A DNA stretch of 64,000 nt, taken from a virus. The position numbers and the translations under genes were made by a program. The notes below the pieces were generated by a model that saw only the letters and a list, made by a program, of their open reading frames with translations, searched no databases and was not told the DNA's origin. Positions 17,463-56,215 of this stretch are shown in pieces (the stretch's first letter is position 1; each line of letters starts with the position of its first letter). Location of the stretch: IMG/VR virus record IMGVR_UViG_3300023082_000011, positions 410 to 64,409 of that record; one strand, written 5' to 3'.

Positions 17463-19616
17463 TTATGAAATTCTAATTTTACTTGGTTTGATTTCTTCAG
17501 GAACACCATATTTGTCAGTTAACCATTCCCTTACATATTGTTCATATTGTTTTTCGGTAGGTATTTTATTCACGCAAAATTTAAGATAATTTTCTTCTTC
17601 TTTCTCACGTTTTGTTTTATCCCTTAAATTTTTAGCTTCTTCTAACATACGTTCCTCAGTTCCATCAATCTTATGTATTAACTTATAACATTCATCAACA
17701 TAGTATTCATAATCAATTTGATATTTTTCTATTGGTAATTCAAAATATTTATTGAAAATTGTTACTTTTTTACCAGCTTCATATTCGGTAGATGTAAGTT
17801 TTGGTTCTCCAGTTATTTTATCTGGTTTATAGGTACATTTACGGAACGATTTACCATTGGTTGATACAAAGTATCTATTGTTCTTTTGTTGTTTCGTTAT
17901 ATCGCTTATTTCATCATTATTGTCACAAACAAAAGTTTCGGCCCACCATTCACCAGTAGTATTTCCTGTTTTACAAAATTCATAGATATCGTTACACTCA
18001 GACAAAGTTTTTTCTACGGGGATGTTTTCAAGAAAATACTTATTCACCGCCGTTGAAACTATTCCTTGAGAAAATGCCTTATGCCACTCCCCATCTTTCC
18101 TTAATTCTTCGTTATCCTTAAAAGTTCCTTTGTATTTAGTGGAAACCTTTGGTTTATATATATAGGAATCGTTTTCAAAAAATATTTCATTTGAAGAAAC
18201 GGCAATGTAGTTATTTACGTCACGTATGACCATCTTTGAATACTCAACATACTCAAGCTGCAATTTACTGATTTCTTGCCAATAATTACAGACCTTGAAA
18301 TACATGTCGATATGTTTTCTGTCAAACTTTACGGTAACACCGTCCGTATTTATTTGTAACATCTGCAAACCTGGAATTTTCATGAACATGAGTTCAGAAA
18401 GCATCAATAAGGCAAGTTGCCCCGCCAAAGTTGTTTTGAGGGTGTATAAAGGATCATAAAGAAAGCTGAATTCACTGTTGCTCTTACCGTATACGCTATT
18501 GGCTGAAAGTTTATAACCATCGGCCATGATTTTATCCCTCATCTTTCCGTCCACTTTTTCTTTGGCATATAGACGGGGTTTTACAATACCGTCTTCATAT
18601 ACCTTTGAAAAAACTTCACCCAAATGTGCAGGATAAAGTTTTTCGGCAATGGCCAAACTCGGATAAAGACTTGCCACGTCGGCGTCAATTATTATTTGGT
18701 CTTCCGCAGCATAAACCCCTGCCTTAATACAACCATGTATTCCTCCCGTTCCAATATCAAACTGAAAATCGTTTGAAGTAAAACTGTAGGCAAAAGAATC
18801 TTTCAATTCCTTGACTTCGATACTTTGTATGTAACTAAACATTTCCTTGAAAGGTTCCGTGCGGAATTTAATATATGAGGGAACGCATTCCGCAAATTTA
18901 AAAAGACTTCTGTGGGTCCTTAAACGTTTAACAATTGCCTCGGATAAACCTGTAGCCTCGCAATAAAGTTTTAAAACAAGCTGCTCACCTATCTTTGAAT
19001 CGGGGTAATTGATACATTTCATTCCATATTTCTTCAACAACCCCCTACGAAGTTCCATCTTACCTTCGGTCTTGTAATAGAACTCTTCCGTGGCGTTTAC
19101 GTCGTTGATGTTGTAATCCAGAATTTCCTGTACCTGTTCAACGGTTTTGATTTTGGTTGTATGGTGGTAAGGCATATCCAAAACGTTGGGATAATTCATA
19201 TTTATCTCAAGTCTCTTTAAGCTAGTGATACGTGCCTTGTTGTTAAAGTGCCAAATAGCAAAAAGATCCATTTGTGGAATCATTACTTCCTCTTCCTTTA
19301 CTGTGGAAAATTCGGCCTTGATAACAGACTGTGCTTTCTTATATACGGAAGCTGTTATTTTATCCCCTGTCCAATATTGCATTTCGGGGATACCTTTTAA
19401 CAAATGGTGTATTACCGGATAGTCGAATGCTAAATTATTGTATCCCACCATTCCTTTACATTTACGTAAATGGTCTACGAATGAGGCGTAATCGTTCCTT
19501 TCCTTCCAAATAACAAATTGTACTATTTCTTTTGTATCCCTGTTCTTGGCTGTATATGTAAACAAATTAGCCAATGTTTCAATATCATAAATCCAAATTC
19601 CTTTATCTTCCATCAT
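17463..19616 (-). CDS. family B DNA polymerase
   Basis: Exo I YDIETL; Pol motif A DADVASLYPS; motif B KLSANSVYGK; motif C QINTDGV (YxDTD-like); 717 aa. Confidence 0.8.
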   Translation of the reverse strand: MMEDKGIWIYDIETLANLFTYTAKNRDTKEIVQFVIWKERNDYASFVDHLRKCKGMVGYNNLAFDYPVIHHLLKGIPEMQYWTGDKITASVYKKAQSVIKAEFSTVKEEEVMIPQMDLFAIWHFNNKARITSLKRLEINMNYPNVLDMPYHHTTKIKTVEQVQEILDYNINDVNATEEFYYKTEGKMELRRGLLKKYGMKCINYPDSKIGEQLVLKLYCEATGLSEAIVKRLRTHRSLFKFAECVPSYIKFRTEPFKEMFSYIQSIEVKELKDSFAYSFTSNDFQFDIGTGGIHGCIKAGVYAAEDQIIIDADVASLYPSLAIAEKLYPAHLGEVFSKVYEDGIVKPRLYAKEKVDGKMRDKIMADGYKLSANSVYGKSNSEFSFLYDPLYTLKTTLAGQLALLMLSELMFMKIPGLQMLQINTDGVTVKFDRKHIDMYFKVCNYWQEISKLQLEYVEYSKMVIRDVNNYIAVSSNEIFFENDSYIYKPKVSTKYKGTFKDNEELRKDGEWHKAFSQGIVSTAVNKYFLENIPVEKTLSECNDIYEFCKTGNTTGEWWAETFVCDNNDEISDITKQQKNNRYFVSTNGKSFRKCTYKPDKITGEPKLTSTEYEAGKKVTIFNKYFELPIEKYQIDYEYYVDECYKLIHKIDGTEERMLEEAKNLRDKTKREKEEENYLKFCVNKIPTEKQYEQYVREWLTDKYGVPEEIKPSKIRIS

Positions 19617-39995: not shown

Positions 39996-41537
39996 TTATT
40001 TAATAGGGCATACACCACTGGCACATTCGTCCAGACCGGAGATATCATTTTCAGAAATATTAACTGAAGTGATAGGTTTCACGTTTTTAACTAATCCCTC
40101 GTATACTTCCTTGGTGATTGCCTCAAAGGGAGCCTGTATAAATCCGTGCCCAGAGTAAAGCAAGAAGCTTAGGGTCTTGAAGTTTTCGTTGAAGTTGTCC
40201 TCAATATATCTTCTTAATTGTGGTAATTCCTCTTTCTTGTAGTAGGCTGTGACACTTACGGAATTATCCGACCAAGTTTTCTGCATCTGTTTAACTTTGT
40301 CGAGTTGTTCAAACACGGTCAAGTCATCCGCCCCTATGGTGCCGTCAGGGTATTTACAAGGAAATTCTACCACCATGGTAGATCTGTCGGCAGTCCCGTC
40401 AAAGTTAATCTGTGATTCAACCTTGTAGCCGTTTGTCCTACATACTTCAATCAAAGGCGAACCGGCCTGTATCCTTATACGTCTGATAAAGTATTGTCCC
40501 GCAGTGGCCGGATGGACACCAGACGTACAACCCGCCAACAAGGATAAACTACCGCTAGGTTTAATTGTGGTTAATTTGATACTTGGATTAAATCCCATTA
40601 ATTTTGAATACTCTTTATCGTACTCACGTAAGTATTTGTAGCAATCATCCAACCAACTCAGTTGCTCTTCAGTAGCCATCATGACTCCAGTTATGCCTAT
40701 ACCCATACGCATATTCTTGTGGACAATCGACTCTGTTTCCTTGCTGTGGCAAGGTAGGGCCAGTGAATGTTTTACCACTCTATACAACATTATGACTACC
40801 TTATAGAGTTCCTCTTTGGAAACGATGTTTGGCAAGTACGTCTCGGCCAAAGCACAAGTCTCGTGGTTTGCCAAAGATTGTTCAGCACAAGGGTTGTATC
40901 CTTCTATATCTGGGTCGGGGTACTCTGTTTCTCCCGATCTACCTATTTTTTTAGATAGTTGTATGTTCACTAGTCCATAAGGCTCACCTTGTTCGTAAGT
41001 ATCCCAAAATTCCTGTGGCAACAGTTTAGCGTCAGGTACATCCACAGAATTGTTAGACATTGCCCTCCAATTGGGGATAGAGCCTAAATCCCAACGTTTT
41101 GCCTTAAGATATTCCAAATCGTCATAATCCCCTATAGCTATTTGTGCAGACCGTCTAACGTTACCTGCAACCACTATCATCCCTATGATGTTCATGATAT
41201 CAAGACAGTCAATGGGACGAAGTTGTTGCCCTCTTCTGTTATCCAAGACTGCACAGATAAGCTTAATACCTTCCACTAAAATCTCGGGGCCAGAGGCTAC
41301 CCCTCCAAAACCTTTTATGGGTGCACCTTCGCCCCTTATTAGCTGTGTAGAGTAAGTAAAACTTTCTCCTGAGTAGAAGTAGGATTTCAACACCTTTCCT
41401 AAGAGTTTCACCCAACCCTCTCTTGTGTCTGGCACAATAAAGTCTGCCTGTGCATTGTCCACACGTTCAACCTTTATCTTTCTTTTTTGGAGCTTTGGTA
41501 GCTTGTACACATGCTCCTTCTTGATTGAAAAGCCAAC
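39996..41537 (-). CDS. ribonucleotide reductase, exon 2 (catalytic core and C-terminal CxxxxC tail)
   Basis: NPCAEQSL..ETCALAETYL (active-site NPCGE..E.C.L), GFGGVASGP, C-terminal ECASGVCP; frame upstream of the GTG reads ..KVGFSIKKEH, placing the splice acceptor near 41537. Confidence 0.65.
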   Translation of the reverse strand, partial: VGFSIKKEHVYKLPKLQKRKIKVERVDNAQADFIVPDTREGWVKLLGKVLKSYFYSGESFTYSTQLIRGEGAPIKGFGGVASGPEILVEGIKLICAVLDNRRGQQLRPIDCLDIMNIIGMIVVAGNVRRSAQIAIGDYDDLEYLKAKRWDLGSIPNWRAMSNNSVDVPDAKLLPQEFWDTYEQGEPYGLVNIQLSKKIGRSGETEYPDPDIEGYNPCAEQSLANHETCALAETYLPNIVSKEELYKVVIMLYRVVKHSLALPCHSKETESIVHKNMRMGIGITGVMMATEEQLSWLDDCYKYLREYDKEYSKLMGFNPSIKLTTIKPSGSLSLLAGCTSGVHPATAGQYFIRRIRIQAGSPLIEVCRTNGYKVESQINFDGTADRSTMVVEFPCKYPDGTIGADDLTVFEQLDKVKQMQKTWSDNSVSVTAYYKKEELPQLRRYIEDNFNENFKTLSFLLYSGHGFIQAPFEAITKEVYEGLVKNVKPITSVNISENDISGLDECASGVCPIK

Positions 41538-42585
41538 CTTTTCTGTTATCTCATAGGCTCTTTATCCTATGATTCTGCACCTTCATTTGTTATACGTGCA
41601 GTTCAGACTATATCATCAGTATTTCTACTGCTGGACGCTCGTGTCAGCATTACTGTCCCAGTAGGACTCGGCTGTTAGTCGTTGAACCTTCAAAAGTGTT
41701 ACCACTTAAGCTTGGCTGCTGATAGTCCCCTTTAGTAGGATTTTCCAGCAATTCATCCAGTTTTACTCGGGCATTGGACAGAATGTACTTATTTTTAAAT
41801 ATCTTACTTGAATTAATATAATGATAGATGACCGTAGTAGTTTCAAAAATCTTTTTAGCTTGATCCACAGATTCAATTTCTGTGATTTCTTTTGTTTCAA
41901 TGTTAAGACAATACAACGTTTTATAGTTTTTTGGTATAGGAACTTTTCTTTGTTCCCACTTACCAGGGGGTTTAGCCCCTTTGTGTCTTATTTGAAACTG
42001 CCTTAATCTTTTTGAGTTCCTTCTCATACTATTTTGAATGTGCTTATCAGATATACCGATAAATTTAGCACATTCTGTATGACTTGGAAAACTCCTTAAA
42101 AAGTTACCTTCTAAGTCATACACATCTACAGATTTTCTTCCAGATAATAATTTCCCTTCTTCGTGAAGTTTCTTGACGGACTTAGAAATTTTTTCTCTCT
42201 GCTCGTCAGAAAATACCCTTAAAAGGCCCCCGATACCTTTATCGTGGGTGTTTGTCAAATCAAACCCTTTATCAAGATAATCTTTGATTATCTGTTGTTC
42301 TGCTTTATAACTCTCTTCCCAACCTTCTACTTCCGATATCATCTCAATTATAGGTGATAATCCCTTTTTTGCCAAACTTAGTATCCAACAATCCTTATGT
42401 GTTTTAGGATTACTACTTTTAGCTTTGGATTTGTGCCCTGATAATCTTACTTTTAAGGAATTTTTTGTTCTTCCTATATAGCGAATTAGATTTGTGGTTG
42501 GATCAGTGAGACTGTAGATCTTGACTTTCATTATATTGATTTGTCGTAAAGATATAAAATCTTATAATACAAACCAAATTTATTT
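41538..42585 (-). mobile_element. group I intron (~1.05 kb) with an internal GIY-YIG HEG, interrupting the RNR gene after the GSG codons
   Basis: Exon 1 ends ..LMLGSG with a T (U) as its last nucleotide (stop TAA two codons later), and exon 2 starts VGFS.., together rebuilding the conserved GGGVGFS motif; an S-element-like UGAUAUAGUCUG lies ~60 nt before an intronic ..AAAAG 3' end; HEG ORF 41650..42531. Confidence 0.5.
41650..42531 (-). CDS. GIY-YIG homing endonuclease (intron-encoded)
   Basis: KIYSLTDPTTNLIRYIGRTKNSLKVRLSGH; C-terminal DNA-binding-like region; sits between the two RNR exons. Confidence 0.75.
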   Translation of the reverse strand: MKVKIYSLTDPTTNLIRYIGRTKNSLKVRLSGHKSKAKSSNPKTHKDCWILSLAKKGLSPIIEMISEVEGWEESYKAEQQIIKDYLDKGFDLTNTHDKGIGGLLRVFSDEQREKISKSVKKLHEEGKLLSGRKSVDVYDLEGNFLRSFPSHTECAKFIGISDKHIQNSMRRNSKRLRQFQIRHKGAKPPGKWEQRKVPIPKNYKTLYCLNIETKEITEIESVDQAKKIFETTTVIYHYINSSKIFKNKYILSNARVKLDELLENPTKGDYQQPSLSGNTFEGSTTNSRVLLGQ

Positions 42586-46439: not shown

Positions 46440-47520
46440 CAAATGCCCGGAGTAAATTAGTTAGTTAATCCAGACAACTGTCGTCCATTATTTTTGAATC
46501 AAATCTGCATATTTCAAGTTCTCCCTACCCATCCTAAGTAACGTGAGGTTGAACTTCTGTGTAGGTTTTTCTTCGCGTTCGTTATATCGGAATGCCATCT
46601 CGTCGCAATACTTCTGTAAGTGTTTCCTGCTTACCTGATAGTACGTTCCTATGATGCTTCTTTTTAGGTGGCTCCAATGGTTTTCAACTGGATTACTTGT
46701 ATATCCGTCGTCAGTCACGTAATTCTTGGCTCCGTGGTTCACGACTTTTTGGTTGTAGTACCTGTCCAATCCCGCATAACCCGTCCACTCGTCGGTGACT
46801 ATGGTAGACCCCTGCGGTACGAGTTCCCATACCAAAGGCTGTAATGTCATTGATTTGGTGTCGGGAACCACCTTAGTGTACACCTTTCCGTCCTGCATCA
46901 TACCGAATACCGGAGTCTTGTCTTTGTAACTGCGGCCTTGCGATTGCTTTACTTTCTTGTCCGCGTGACGGTTCTTGTTTTTTCCTCCCACAAATGTCTC
47001 GTCCATGGTTATCACCATATCCTGTTGTATGTCGGGAACATCCTGCTTATAGGAATGTCTTATCCGGCTAAGCATGAACCAGGCCGTCTTTTGGGTCAAA
47101 CCCAGATCCTCGGCAAGCTGATAGGAACTTATCCCGCGTTTATGGGACGAAAACAGGTAGACCGCAATGAACCAATGGCGAAGGCCGATGGGCGAGTTCT
47201 CGAATATCGTCCCAACCCGAACCGTGTACCTCTTTCTGCAAGTTCCGCATTTGTAGAGGCCGTTAAACTCTCCCTTTACGTTGAGTTTGTATGCTTTCTG
47301 TCCTTCGCAGTGCGGACATTTGGGTTTGCCTTCCCACAGCACATCTTCCAGGTATTCCCTGCACGATTTCTCGTCGGGCAGCACCCTCAACATTTCCGCA
47401 AACGACTTGAATTCCAATTTACACATAACCAGAACTTTAAAGTGTATAAATTTACTGAATCGGGGTGAAACGGGCAAATATGTTGTTCAAATTCCTATGA
47501 AAATTTTGTTAATTTTAGAA
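46440..47520 (-). mobile_element. IS1595-family insertion sequence (ends approximate)
   Basis: Contains the single transposase gene 46488..47477; terminal inverted repeats not confidently resolved by eye. Confidence 0.4.
46488..47477 (-). CDS. IS1595-family DDE transposase
   Basis: N-terminal zinc ribbon CPHCEG..CGTCRKRY, HTH, MVITMDETFVGG, TIVTDEWTGY, VVNHG, NPVENHWSHLKR and AFRYNER follow the IS1595/ISXO2 transposase motif order. Confidence 0.8.
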   Translation of the reverse strand: MPVSPRFSKFIHFKVLVMCKLEFKSFAEMLRVLPDEKSCREYLEDVLWEGKPKCPHCEGQKAYKLNVKGEFNGLYKCGTCRKRYTVRVGTIFENSPIGLRHWFIAVYLFSSHKRGISSYQLAEDLGLTQKTAWFMLSRIRHSYKQDVPDIQQDMVITMDETFVGGKNKNRHADKKVKQSQGRSYKDKTPVFGMMQDGKVYTKVVPDTKSMTLQPLVWELVPQGSTIVTDEWTGYAGLDRYYNQKVVNHGAKNYVTDDGYTSNPVENHWSHLKRSIIGTYYQVSRKHLQKYCDEMAFRYNEREEKPTQKFNLTLLRMGRENLKYADLIQK

Positions 47521-53127: not shown

Positions 53128-53472
53128 TTAATTTATTTTCATTTCCAATGCCTGCTCTTTGGTGGGAACCCAATCCCCGCCTAAATAACCCATGACCCAA
53201 TCGTAGAGATTATCGTAGGGTACTTCGGGACCACTGTTGGATCTGAAATTTATGTTATTTCCCATGCCCCTGAAAGATATGCTCCACACGTCCCCAAACC
53301 TTGTATCATAGCAGTTGTCTATATACTTAATCATGAAGCCATATTCTGGCAGGTTCGGGTATTTTTGTTTTGTTTCTTCACTCCTACCGTCAGATGATAT
53401 ATACCCAAATCTGTGATGTTGTTGGATGAAACTTAGCACTTTATTGTATTGGTCTGGTGACATTCCTTTCAT
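53128..53472 (-). CDS. hypothetical protein (114 aa), downstream of the DGR RT
   Basis: ORF track; overlaps the RT 3' end. Confidence 0.35.
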   Translation of the reverse strand: MKGMSPDQYNKVLSFIQQHHRFGYISSDGRSEETKQKYPNLPEYGFMIKYIDNCYDTRFGDVWSISFRGMGNNINFRSNSGPEVPYDNLYDWVMGYLGGDWVPTKEQALEMKIN

Positions 53473-54394
53473 ATTTATTCCTTAAATTTACCGAATTACA
53501 ATGCGCCAACCAAGAATTGTGGTTCATCTTAATTGGGTTCTTTTTGTACTTTTGTTTTATAGACTTCCTTAGTAATACGTGGGTGTGATAATGTCGAAAT
53601 CCTACCCAGTCTATACCCCTACTTTCTACGGGAAATATTTGGTGGTTTGATTTAACCTCCAGTTTTAGGTTGTCCCCCAAATACTTCTTGATTTCTTGAA
53701 ACCGCGTATGAAGTTCTTCCTTACTGTCTGACAAAATTACAAAATCGTCACAATATCTTTGAAAATACTTTATCCGCAAAACTTCCTTAACCCAGTGGTC
53801 GAAATAGGTGAGGTAGAAGTTAGCCAAAAACTGACTTGTGTAAGATCCCAAAGGCAAGCCTTCTTCATAAGAGTCTATTACGTCATCCAATAACCATAAA
53901 ACCCCCCTATCCTTAAACTTTTTTCGGAGCAGCCCTTTTAATATACTCTTGTCTACGGACTGATAGAATTTTCTTATGTCCAACTTAAGGCAGTATTTCG
54001 TACCTTCTGCGTCTTTCAGGTAATTCCTCAGCTTATAAGATGCTGCATGCACACCCCTTCCTTTTATGCAACTAAAGGTATCCGCCGTGAAAGTCTTTAT
54101 AAACAAAGGCTCCAAAACATTTAGAACTACATGATGTACTATACCATCAGGGTAAAATGGGAGTGAGGATATTGTTCTTTCCTTACCCTCAAAAATGGTG
54201 AAGGTGTGGTAAGGAGAAGTAGTGAATGATCTATACTCCAACATCGCCTTTATTTTCCACAGATTTTCTTCCCTATTTTCCAGATGTCTTTTTACTCCCC
54301 TTTGTTTGGCTTTACCTCTTTTGGCCTTAATCTCCGCTTTTCTTATGTTATCTATGTCAACTATCTTTTCAAAAAGGTTGCCTATACGTTTCAT
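53441..54394 (-). CDS. diversity-generating retroelement (DGR) reverse transcriptase
   Basis: RT motifs: LKLDIRKFYQSVD (motif A), LPLGSYTSQFLANFYL (DGR-specific [IL]GxxxSQ in place of QGxxxSP), RYCDDFVIL (YxDD); 317 aa; adjacent TR/VR pair. Confidence 0.85.
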   Translation of the reverse strand: MKRIGNLFEKIVDIDNIRKAEIKAKRGKAKQRGVKRHLENREENLWKIKAMLEYRSFTTSPYHTFTIFEGKERTISSLPFYPDGIVHHVVLNVLEPLFIKTFTADTFSCIKGRGVHAASYKLRNYLKDAEGTKYCLKLDIRKFYQSVDKSILKGLLRKKFKDRGVLWLLDDVIDSYEEGLPLGSYTSQFLANFYLTYFDHWVKEVLRIKYFQRYCDDFVILSDSKEELHTRFQEIKKYLGDNLKLEVKSNHQIFPVESRGIDWVGFRHYHTHVLLRKSIKQKYKKNPIKMNHNSWLAHCNSVNLRNKYERNVTRPIQ

Positions 54395-54525
54395 ATTTTT
54401 TCAAAGCCTCTGTATTTTGACACATTTTCGGAACTATACTCCTACCAATGTGTCTTTAAGTGCTTTATTTGTTATTTTCTACCGTTTTAAGGTAAAGTTT
54501 TCCTCCTGTAAATGGTGCATCACCG

Positions 54526-54584
54526 CAGATGTGCGTCGAATAGTTACAATTCGAGTTGTAGTCATTGAAGTTGTTGACAACGGG
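54526..54584 (-). repeat. DGR template repeat (TR)
   Basis: 59-bp copy between the target gene stop and the RT; the coding strand carries adenines at all 10 positions where the VR differs; TR translates PVVNNFNDYNSNCNYSTHICGD, rich in AAC codons. Confidence 0.75.
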
Positions 54585-54602
54585 GGAGGGGGACTTGCTT
54601 AT

Positions 54603-55064
54603 TTAGTATGGTATGTATTCTTCAAATTGGTTAAAGGCAATCTTTGTAAGGTGCCTCTGTAATGGTTCACTCTTAGTACAGAGGCGCGCCGAAAAGTCAC
54701 AATCCGAGTAGTAGCCACCGAAGTAGTTGACAACGGGTTTACCTGATCTTAAATCCCAGTATGTAAACCATTTTCTTTCGCTCGAATTGGTAAAGTCTGG
54801 TTCCCAACCTTCATTCAAAGCTTTACATTGTACAACAATTTCTTGTTCTGCTACAATCTTACGGGATAATCCTTGTACACTATACAAAAGACGTAACTGT
54901 TTAACGGCTTCGTCATTCTCTCCCAATTCAAGTATCGCATCCTGCAATCCTCTTATACGGGAAAAGATGTCTTTTTTACTTTCTTTGAATACTATATTCT
55001 CAAATGTTGACTTTTCTTTGTCAATTTCGTAACCGTTGGGAATTTCAATTTTTAGATTTTTCAT
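54603..55064 (-). CDS. DGR target protein (153 aa) with the variable repeat near its C-terminus
   Basis: VR encodes ..KPVVNYFGGYYSDCDFSARLC..; C-type-lectin-like Gly/Tyr/Asp/Cys-rich C-terminal region. Confidence 0.7.
   Translation of the reverse strand: MKNLKIEIPNGYEIDKEKSTFENIVFKESKKDIFSRIRGLQDAILELGENDEAVKQLRLLYSVQGLSRKIVAEQEIVVQCKALNEGWEPDFTNSSERKWFTYWDLRSGKPVVNYFGGYYSDCDFSARLCTKSEPLQRHLTKIAFNQFEEYIPY
54679..54737 (-). repeat. DGR variable repeat (VR)
   Basis: Matches the TR except at 10 of 18 TR adenine positions (coding strand): classic A-specific mutagenesis pattern. Confidence 0.75.
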
Positions 55065-55090
55065 TTTTTACTGTTTAAGTGTTTTTTGTT

Positions 55091-55128
55091 TTGCTCCCGT
55101 CAACCAAACCAATGACTGACGGGAAATG
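55091..55128. repeat. conserved hairpin motif CCCGYCAACCAAWCCAATGAYTKACGGG, copy 1
   Basis: Near-identical copy at 62631..62658; both lie in long noncoding stretches. Confidence 0.45.
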
Positions 55129-55719
55129 TAGGTAATCTATAAGCTGTCTTACATTAGACGATGGTATTTCTACCAAGATAGTTTAGCTACCTATTTACTT
55201 ATAAATCTTCCGCCTCAAAGGGAACCTACAAATTTGATAGAATTATTAACTCAGATAATCACCCGCCTCAGTATTACTACCGTTTATCACCATTACATGT
55301 TATCTTAACGTCAGATTATCCTTACTGGGTCGATTTTGTTAACCCTATCAAATAATAAATGAAACCAACCCTCACTTTTCCAAGGTGATGAAGTAAATAT
55401 GACCACCCATCGGCTTTAGTACCTAATGTCGCTTTAAACCTAAACGGTCAATTAGCTTTAAACCCACTAAAATGGGTGCCTGTTATGTTACTTACTATTC
55501 ACTTCACCCAATCAACAGAAACGACTTGGAATGTCTAAAACCTTGCTGTTTTTGGTGAGTGCCATCTCCAAAGGTTTCTTCCATCAATTGGCGGGTTGGT
55601 TTCAAATGTTATTTATATGGAACCTCTTCCCATGATATTGATACTTTAACTTTCCATTTGTGTTCCTGCCTTCCCTTCTTATATCCATCATTACTTTCTT
55701 TAAGATTTATTTTACTTCC

Positions 55720-55802
55720 AGACGAATATGGGATTCGAACCCATGACCCTTTCGGATATAAGGATGTGTACTTACGCAATAATCCACCTCTGCCAATTCG
55801 CC
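55720..55802 (-). tRNA. class-II-like tRNA or tRNA-like gene (83 nt, no encoded CCA) with an apparent 8-nt anticodon loop UACACAUC
   Basis: Manual fold: acceptor GGCGAAT/ATTCGTC (7 bp, one G-U), U8, D-stem GCAG/TTGC with GG in the loop, anticodon stem GUAAG/CUUAU, 13-nt variable arm, T-arm ATGGG-TTCGAAT-CCCAT. Confidence 0.45.
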
Positions 55803-56215
55803 CCACGGCATCCATGTATAATGAGTATTGACAGGTTTTGGTATCGATGACATTCGGCCAATTTTTATGCAGTGTCTGCTGCTCCTATCAATATTTTAAT
55901 GCGTCCCTTGTATCTGTGCACAGATTGTTGAACCAAGGGTAATTTTAATCAACTTTTTTAGTTTTCAATGTTATTCCAAGAAGTGAAACGGTTCATCCTA
56001 ATCACGTCTGATACACTTTTTAACTCTCACATTGGTTACATGGGTTAGCCCATTCTTACGTTTCTGCCAGTTTGCACCCGTACAGACCGCCTTTGCTACC
56101 ATTTATTATGTGGATATAAGCTCCACTCCAAGGAATAACATTGTTTAATGTGTCGGGAGGGAAACTATGCCCATCATTTCAAGTATTGAATACACGCTTT
56201 TGCCGGCCATTTGCA

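Follow-up and report, generated by a model that had tools for sequence, protein, structure and literature searches.

In the diversity-generating retroelements (DGRs) described so far, the variable repeats (VRs) lie systematically on C-type-lectin folds and the phage targets are mostly tail proteins (Roux et al. 2021, PMC8144416). A non-structural phage target is known from the Quimbyviridae, and it also has a C-type-lectin domain (Benler 2021, PMC8008677). In the curated set of Wu et al. (2018, PMC5758913), the accessory gene avd was found in 74% of the DGRs, 29% were without an accessory gene (Architecture A, composed of template repeat (TR) and reverse transcriptase (RT)) and the known targets ranged from 44 to 2697 aa. 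One RT lineage was wholly without avd, and no remote avd was found in the genomes of avd-less DGRs. Here, we describe a DGR in a 64-kb stretch of DNA from a large uncultivated phage, hereafter the window (positions 410 to 64,409 of the IMG/VR record IMGVR_UViG_3300023082_000011). The element is read as a complete DGR from a lineage without Avd that is commonly found in Bacteroidota phages and prophages, diversifying a small protein that is not a tail fibre by the mechanism outlined below (estimated probability, including mechanism and target reading, about 0.85).

The whole cassette comprises 1.6 kb. All parts are located on the minus strand, in the order target open reading frame (ORF), VR, TR, spacer and RT. 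In positions of the window, the features are:

54603..55064, minus strand: target gene, 153 aa, from the ORF list
54679..54737, minus strand: VR, encoding target residues 110-129 (PVVNYFGGYYSDCDFSARLC)
54679..54692, minus strand: GC-rich 3' end of the VR resembling an initiation of mutagenic homing (IMH) site, TCGGCGCGCCTCTG, encoding S-A-R-L; its TR counterpart (IMH*) is TCGACGCACATCTG
54653..54685, minus strand: 9-bp inverted repeat, GCCTCTGTA/TACAGAGGC, with a 15-nt loop
54526..54584, minus strand: TR, non-coding, with 18 adenines and 6 AAY codons in the VR frame
54395..54525, minus strand: spacer between TR and RT, 131 nt, presumed cis-acting part of the DGR RNA
53441..54394, minus strand: DGR RT, 317 aa, with LGSYTSQ, YCDD and an Arg aligned with R74 of the Bordetella phage RT (bRT)
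53128..53472, minus strand: 114-aa ORF overlapping the 3' end of the RT gene by 32 nt

The coordinates of RT and target in the original prediction, which had been made from the sequence alone, agree with the ORF list, and the VR was correctly placed in the C-terminal part of the small ORF (residues 110-129 of 153). The TR is located in the 208-nt gap between the target stop codon (54605..54603) and the RT start. Its distance from the stop is 18 nt, against the ~20 nt given originally.

The two 59-nt copies (54526-54584 and 54679-54737) were recovered as the top-ranking repeat of the region. On the coding strand they differ at 11 positions, one more than the 10 counted originally, and the claim that differences occur only at TR adenines holds for all of them (11/11, with 18 adenines in the 59-nt TR; hypergeometric P=1.1e-7). 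Seven changes are A>G, three A>T and one A>C. All 11 concern the first or second position of a codon. Of the 18 adenines in the TR, not one is at a third position (P=1.8e-4), and no A-to-N change in the TR can reach a stop codon. The TR had been described as rich in AAC, and AAY indeed makes up 6 of its 19 codons. It can encode 4.7e10 protein variants, or 7.3e8 without the IMH-like codons. The freely variable core corresponds to target residues 113-124, and up to 12 codons would be randomised (113-124, possibly to 128). A second VR was rejected for this window: a search of the 64 kb with each TR adenine as N gave only the two known copies, with 0.00 expected from shuffles.

A comparison of VR/TR pairs identified a conserved IMH/IMH* end at the 3' boundary. 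Throughout the clade, the VR ends in ...TCGGCTCYCGCCTYTGY and the TR in ...TCAGCTCYCACCTATRY, with A at three fixed positions of the TR. The window pair displays this pattern (TCGGCGCGCCTCTG vs TCGACGCACATCTG), and the same 3'-end differences recur in most of 22 compared pairs from relatives, with small and large targets alike. This is the arrangement expected of a putative IMH in the VR whose TR counterpart, the IMH*, carries mismatches. A perfect 9-bp hairpin (GCCTCTGTA/TACAGAGGC) overlaps the VR 3' end and is missing from the TR copy (chance expectation ~0.01 by our own estimate), and may be a candidate target-recognition hairpin. Its role is uncertain, since relatives do not conserve it, and as a conserved recognition element it was rejected.

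The architecture of the spacer is conserved across 33 loci. It consists of helix 1 (54480..54494, UACC/GGUA), an A-rich tract and helix 2 (54419..54454, GACACAUU/AAUGUGUC), the latter flanking a UUGGUA...GAA core in which GUA...GA is invariant among aligned relatives. All four pairs of helix 1 have compensatory changes (33 loci); for the two helices together, such changes were drawn from 27-33 related loci. With the arms of helix 2 placed by motif anchors independent of pairing, 75.5% of its cells were paired vs 53% in shuffles, and covariation was 0.60 vs 0.24 in shuffles (0/500 as high; slid controls 0.08-0.24). An earlier test of helix 2 by the longest contiguous helix showed no excess over shuffles. 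The fold of the spacer window had a z of -2.05. Together these patterns point to a structured cis-acting RNA downstream of the TR, which, after the BPP-1 spacer, should position the RT for priming.

The RT affiliates with PF00078 (E=3e-16) and with the phage RT family phrog_1423 (E=5e-108). Its best match in PDB was the 328-aa chain 8ub7_A, aligned over the full length (E=2.9e-42), followed by group II intron RTs (1.9e-14) and retron-type RTs (3e-14). From the chain length and the YMDD/D215-D216 context, and not from a stated name, we infer that 8ub7 is bRT. The LGxxxSQ motif named in the original prediction is read in the ORF as LGSYTSQ and fits the DGR signature [I/V/L]GxxxSQ, which stands in place of QGxxxSP; in bRT, the motif residue and R74 both promote adenine mutagenesis (PMC7826257). 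In a hand alignment, the window RT has an Arg at the R74 position. By these sequence characters the protein is assigned to the DGR clade of RTs.

A metagenomic contig of 139,261 bp encodes the exact target protein. The closer homologues of this protein are located directly upstream of a TR and an RT on 57-132-kb contigs, in an Elizabethkingia prophage and on IMG/VR contigs; our literature search found no paper on a DGR in Elizabethkingia. The RTs of these relatives matched the window RT with phmmer E values of 1e-137 to 1e-87, and those from IMG/VR share 47-58% identity with it. The order target-TR-RT with A-specific VRs was present in L003, L015, L017, L019-L021, L024-L028, L035-L041, L088 and L102 (L numbers denote the compared loci), and in every one of them the VR/TR differences are at adenines. 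Elements of this order, likewise without an Avd, include that of the Elizabethkingia prophage and those of more than 20 metagenomic phages. The relatives mostly encode two, sometimes three paralogous small targets. The position of the second varies: it lies upstream of the first, separates this one from the TR, or follows the RT. In the window, a single target is encoded. Two of the relatives, L024 and L026, have identical TRs and differ by 34 substitutions in 2.2 kb, 23 of which lie inside the two ~60-nt VRs. This turnover is direct evidence that the lineage was recently active.

If the element works like the DGR of the Bordetella phage, the TR and the structured spacer would be transcribed, and the RT would produce a cDNA from the TR with misincorporation opposite adenines. 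The cDNA would then take the place of the VR in the neighbouring gene, with the GC-rich IMH at the 3' end of this repeat as the guide. As an outcome, the codons of a beta-hairpin and loop in the 153-aa protein would be randomised to about 7e8 to 5e10 stop-free variants. The reading as a complete DGR is carried by the anatomy of the locus, the adenine specificity, the clade of the RT, the conserved spacer helices and the VR turnover in sister loci. As far as sequence can support it, the typical set is present: a DGR-clade RT with a non-coding TR beside it, TR/VR differences specific to adenines, an ORF whose 3' part contains the VR, and a conserved 3' end of the IMH type. Of the typical features, only Avd and the C-type-lectin fold are missing.

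Several points weigh against this reading. We know of no experimental demonstration of Avd-independent retrohoming. The search for Avd covered the 64 kb of the window, from a contig of ~139 kb, and a factor encoded in trans is possible. The last three of the 11 TR/VR differences, which encode S-x-R-L, are fixed differences of the IMH/IMH* type and not free variation, because the same pattern recurs across the clade. The only other contig with this copy, of 13.6 kb and from another dataset, is 100% identical, VR included, and is for this reason uninformative on variability. In the predicted structure of the target, the VR is placed on neither a C-type-lectin nor an Ig-like fold, and the function proposed for the target derives from its gene neighbourhood. 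Finally, bRT is inactive without Avd (bioRxiv 10.1101/2023.10.23.563531).

The unusual part of the element, missed by the original prediction, is the target family and its predicted fold. No Pfam or NCBIfam family matched the target; its one family match was phrog_11581, of unknown function (E=4e-13). One search returned 271 homologues, and the family comprises 8,564 cluster representatives (50% identity) at E<=1e-3 and 3,539 at E<=1e-10. Neither a profile search of PDB sequences with the family nor PADLOC gave a match, and no paralogue of the target was found in the window. All genome matches of the family are from Bacteroidota; among GenBank phages, the single match is in an unannotated stretch of Bacteroides phage BT-TP2. 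Other members that were examined have no DGR nearby and a shorter loop at the VR site. The family is further characterised by a KALNEGWxPDW motif and by a nearly invariant N-terminus, MKxLKIEIPxGYEIDKEKSTFENIVFKE. These residues 1-28 (window 54981..55064) are nearly invariant though the family shares only ~26% identity overall. They are swapped for an unrelated helix in the Elizabethkingia targets and missing from 123-aa second targets, and may form a separable module that has a conserved partner of its own.

Genes in the neighbourhood of family members encode methyltransferase, helicase, RecT, SbcC, HNH, primase and DnaD proteins and no tail proteins. Likewise, the window represents the replication or early part of a phage, with a DNA polymerase, an intron-containing ribonucleotide reductase (RNR), helicases, an RNA ligase and homing endonucleases. 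The setting described originally as cargo DNA is thus the early/replication region of a ~139-kb phage contig. In a confident AlphaFold2 model of the target (pLDDT 90.4, pTM 0.79), an N-terminal beta pair precedes four helices, which are followed by a beta-hairpin, the VR loop and a further two helices at the C-terminus; the VR forms the second strand of the hairpin and the following loop. Foldseek against PDB gave a best E of 0.48 and no C-type-lectin or Ig match, so the lectin- or Ig-like fold raised as a possibility in the original prediction was not borne out by the model. Matches in BFVD were uncharacterised gut-phage proteins only. A small, apparently non-lectin target in an early region is noteworthy because VRs are reported systematically on C-type lectins and because the non-structural precedent itself has a C-type-lectin domain.

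The target is read not as a tail fibre but as a member of a family encoded in early/replication modules, so that the ligand of its variable patch is most likely a host molecule that itself varies. This ligand is probably intracellular, such as a defence or host-takeover target; a virion or adhesin role is the other possibility. The latter would make the target a conventional receptor-binding or adhesin part of the virion, for instance a small tail-tip or decoration protein, switching host range as in BPP-1. Most phage DGRs set this precedent (Roux 2021, PMC8144416), and the nearly invariant N-terminal 28 residues could serve docking. In addition, sister RTs target proteins of 440-680 aa without a Pfam match, with VRs ending in ...GSRLCFIP, which by their sequence resemble tail-type C-type-lectin targets. 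Still, all contexts examined consist of early, replication or recombination genes with no structural gene, the model has no likeness to known receptor-binding or C-type-lectin domains, and non-structural phage targets have a precedent (Benler 2021, PMC8008677). A virion role is therefore a possibility to which we give tentative weight.

In an hhalign comparison, the domains of the large targets and the small family showed no homology beyond 13 columns at SxRLC, the end encoded by the IMH. As large and small targets share only this end, the comparison suggests, short of proof, that a VR/IMH module was captured onto a different scaffold. A possible and still speculative scenario is that the lineage moved this module from lectin-type tail proteins to a small, early, intracellular scaffold, and that the 1.6-kb cassette now diversifies a counter-defence or host-takeover binder without Avd.

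Regarding Avd, the accessory variability determinant with a four-helix bundle, neither PF05635 nor TIGR02436 matched the neighbouring ORFs, and no Avd-family Pfam match was found among the 119 ORFs of 75-190 aa on both strands of the window, or among the genes of an overlapping 20-kb stretch of the source contig (L001). This agrees with the originally reported lack of a recognisable Avd and, within the 64 kb, also answers for a homologue at a distance from the cassette. The absence of Avd and the small size of the target are within the variation known from Wu et al. (2018, PMC5758913), where both had already been documented, and to call a target of 153 aa unusually small was an overstatement given the range cited above. 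The element would be independent of Avd.

The 114-aa ORF directly after the RT affiliates with no Pfam, NCBIfam or phrog family. A search of 5.8 billion proteins returned three homologues of this ORFan, which has no relationship to the ORFs after the RT in relatives and fills the slot that is used there by a second target or a conserved ORF of ~100 aa. It is a possible member of the cassette. As a second target or an Avd it was rejected, having no family match, no relationship to the second targets or downstream ORFs of relatives, and hardly any homologues. A 123-aa ORF between target and TR in Elizabethkingia was likewise considered as an Avd and rejected, since it contains a VR and represents a second target.

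Most relatives carry a small conserved ORF directly after the RT. In 13 loci with small targets this is phrog_19665 (~100 aa; L028 10024-10320, L035 3950-4246, L020 7850-8155, L102 3971-4288 and nine others), and in DGRs with large targets phrog_11557 (~125 aa; L046 3986-4375 and about 60 others). According to Pfam, neither of these families of unknown function resembles Avd, and the window has no member of them. Both are candidates for accessory factors of the clade termed Avd-less.

An accessory factor could exist after all, encoded elsewhere in the ~139-kb genome, by the host, or by the adjacent 114-aa ORF, in which case the element would not be truly Avd-independent. The requirement of bRT for Avd and the limits of the 64-kb scan agree with this explanation, as do the conserved ORFs after the RT of most relatives and the position of the 114-aa ORF in the same slot, overlapping the RT end. 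On the other side are the absence of any Avd family match in the window, the ORFan character of the 114-aa protein with its unrelatedness to the downstream ORFs of relatives, and the failure to find a remote avd in avd-less DGR genomes (Wu et al. 2018, PMC5758913). We consider such a factor rather unlikely, and retain the reading of an element without Avd.

Two relatives have an altered RT gene. In L017 (5472-7255), two separate TR/VR pairs are arranged around an RT split into two ORFs, and in L027 (6582-7559) the RT ORF is cut to 216 aa, yet both VRs of the locus depart from the TR at adenines alone. Frameshifting, recoding or decay may account for these states.

We infer that the window copy is active. 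It might instead be a fossil that once diversified its target and is now silent, the 11 differences being frozen history. The identical VR in two datasets is in line with that view, as are the damaged RTs of L027 and L017 beside VRs still unlike their TRs, and the lack here of the downstream ORF (phrog_19665) conserved in relatives. Nevertheless, every component of the element is intact, from the target ORF and the IMH to the TR adenines, the two spacer helices and the RT, the TR is still free of third-position adenines, and the VRs of the sisters L024 and L026 have recently turned over, which makes a fossil improbable.

The last alternative, in which the repeat arose by chance or duplication and the RT is of the group II intron, retron or defence kind, is effectively refuted: although the top NCBIfam models were group II RT, Drt3a and retron RT with no match to a DGR-RT family, the group II score was 111.8 bits against a cut-off of 300 (TIGR04416), the retron and defence (Drt, UG) models were also far under their cut-offs, PADLOC gave generic RT matches only, the bRT match was 28 orders of magnitude better than that of any group II RT, Rfam scans found no group II intron or retron RNA, and the adenine specificity has a P of 1e-7.

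The wider genome has no close relative among 50,697 GenBank phage records, and its DNA polymerase (17463..19616) shares at most 35% identity with any of them. Directly upstream of the DGR target is an ORF-poor stretch of 1.15 kb (55065..56215), in which Rfam gave sub-threshold matches only. It contains a degenerate tRNA-like element (55719..55803, minus strand) with an odd anticodon loop according to ARAGORN and an Rfam tRNA score of 20.3 bits against a threshold of 29. A group I intron (41587..41827, minus strand; RF00028, 63.8 bits) is located between an RNR ORF (phrog_367) and a homing-endonuclease-like ORF (phrog_314), the flanking ORFs being 39996..41510 and 41650..42531; it appears that an intron carrying a homing endonuclease gene interrupts the RNR gene. 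An IS1595-type transposase (46488..47477, minus strand; Pfam Zn_ribbon_IS1595 and DDE_Tnp_IS1595, L001 17639-18577) is inserted in the phage genome beside a short block of plus-strand genes.

A non-lectin scaffold, once confidently established, would add to the structural solutions that are known for massive sequence variation. Should the target act within the cell, programmed hypermutation would extend to phage-host conflict beyond adsorption. Any function learned for the target would apply widely, because the scaffold family has thousands of members in phage early regions. The cassette is also an attractive minimal chassis for engineered targeted mutagenesis, owing to its small size (1.6 kb, with a 59-nt TR), the absence of a recognisable Avd in our searches and a spacer RNA defined by covariation.

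In comparison with known systems, the element shares with the BPP-1 DGR (mtd-avd-TR-brt) the RT clade, with alignment over the full length and the [I/V/L]GxxxSQ motif, A-specific changes from TR to VR, a target gene whose 3' part contains the VR with its GC-rich IMH end, and a structured non-coding spacer between TR and RT. It differs in the absence of Avd, a target of 153 aa vs 381 aa, a VR of 59 nt vs 134 nt and about 25 helix residues after the VR; the target is no tail-fibre gene and its predicted fold is not that of a C-type lectin. The accessory-less DGRs of Architecture A1 (target-TR-RT), with Lineage 3 in Wu et al. (2018), including 3A from Bacteroides and its relatives, have the same gene order, no avd and the same host phylum, which for the window element would be Bacteroidota; the likeness is one of architecture and putative host phylum. 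The IMG/VR sister RTs at 47-58% identity share this accessory-less layout. The described targets of Lineage 3 are, however, large and of C-type-lectin type, whereas the window target is a small unannotated scaffold. The second target of the Quimbyviridae (Benler et al. 2021) is also encoded away from structural genes, with a proposed role in intracellular phage-host conflict; it contains a C-type-lectin domain, is encoded far from the RT and exists beside a structural target. In contrast, the window target is the sole one, adjacent to the RT, small and, by prediction, not lectin-like. The sister DGRs with small targets (the Elizabethkingia prophage L028; L024/L026, L035-L041 and L102) usually encode two to three paralogous targets, 13 of them with phrog_19665 after the RT, whereas the window element has a single target and its slot after the RT is occupied by an unrelated ORFan; they share with it the target family, the IMH, the spacer RNA and the RT clade.

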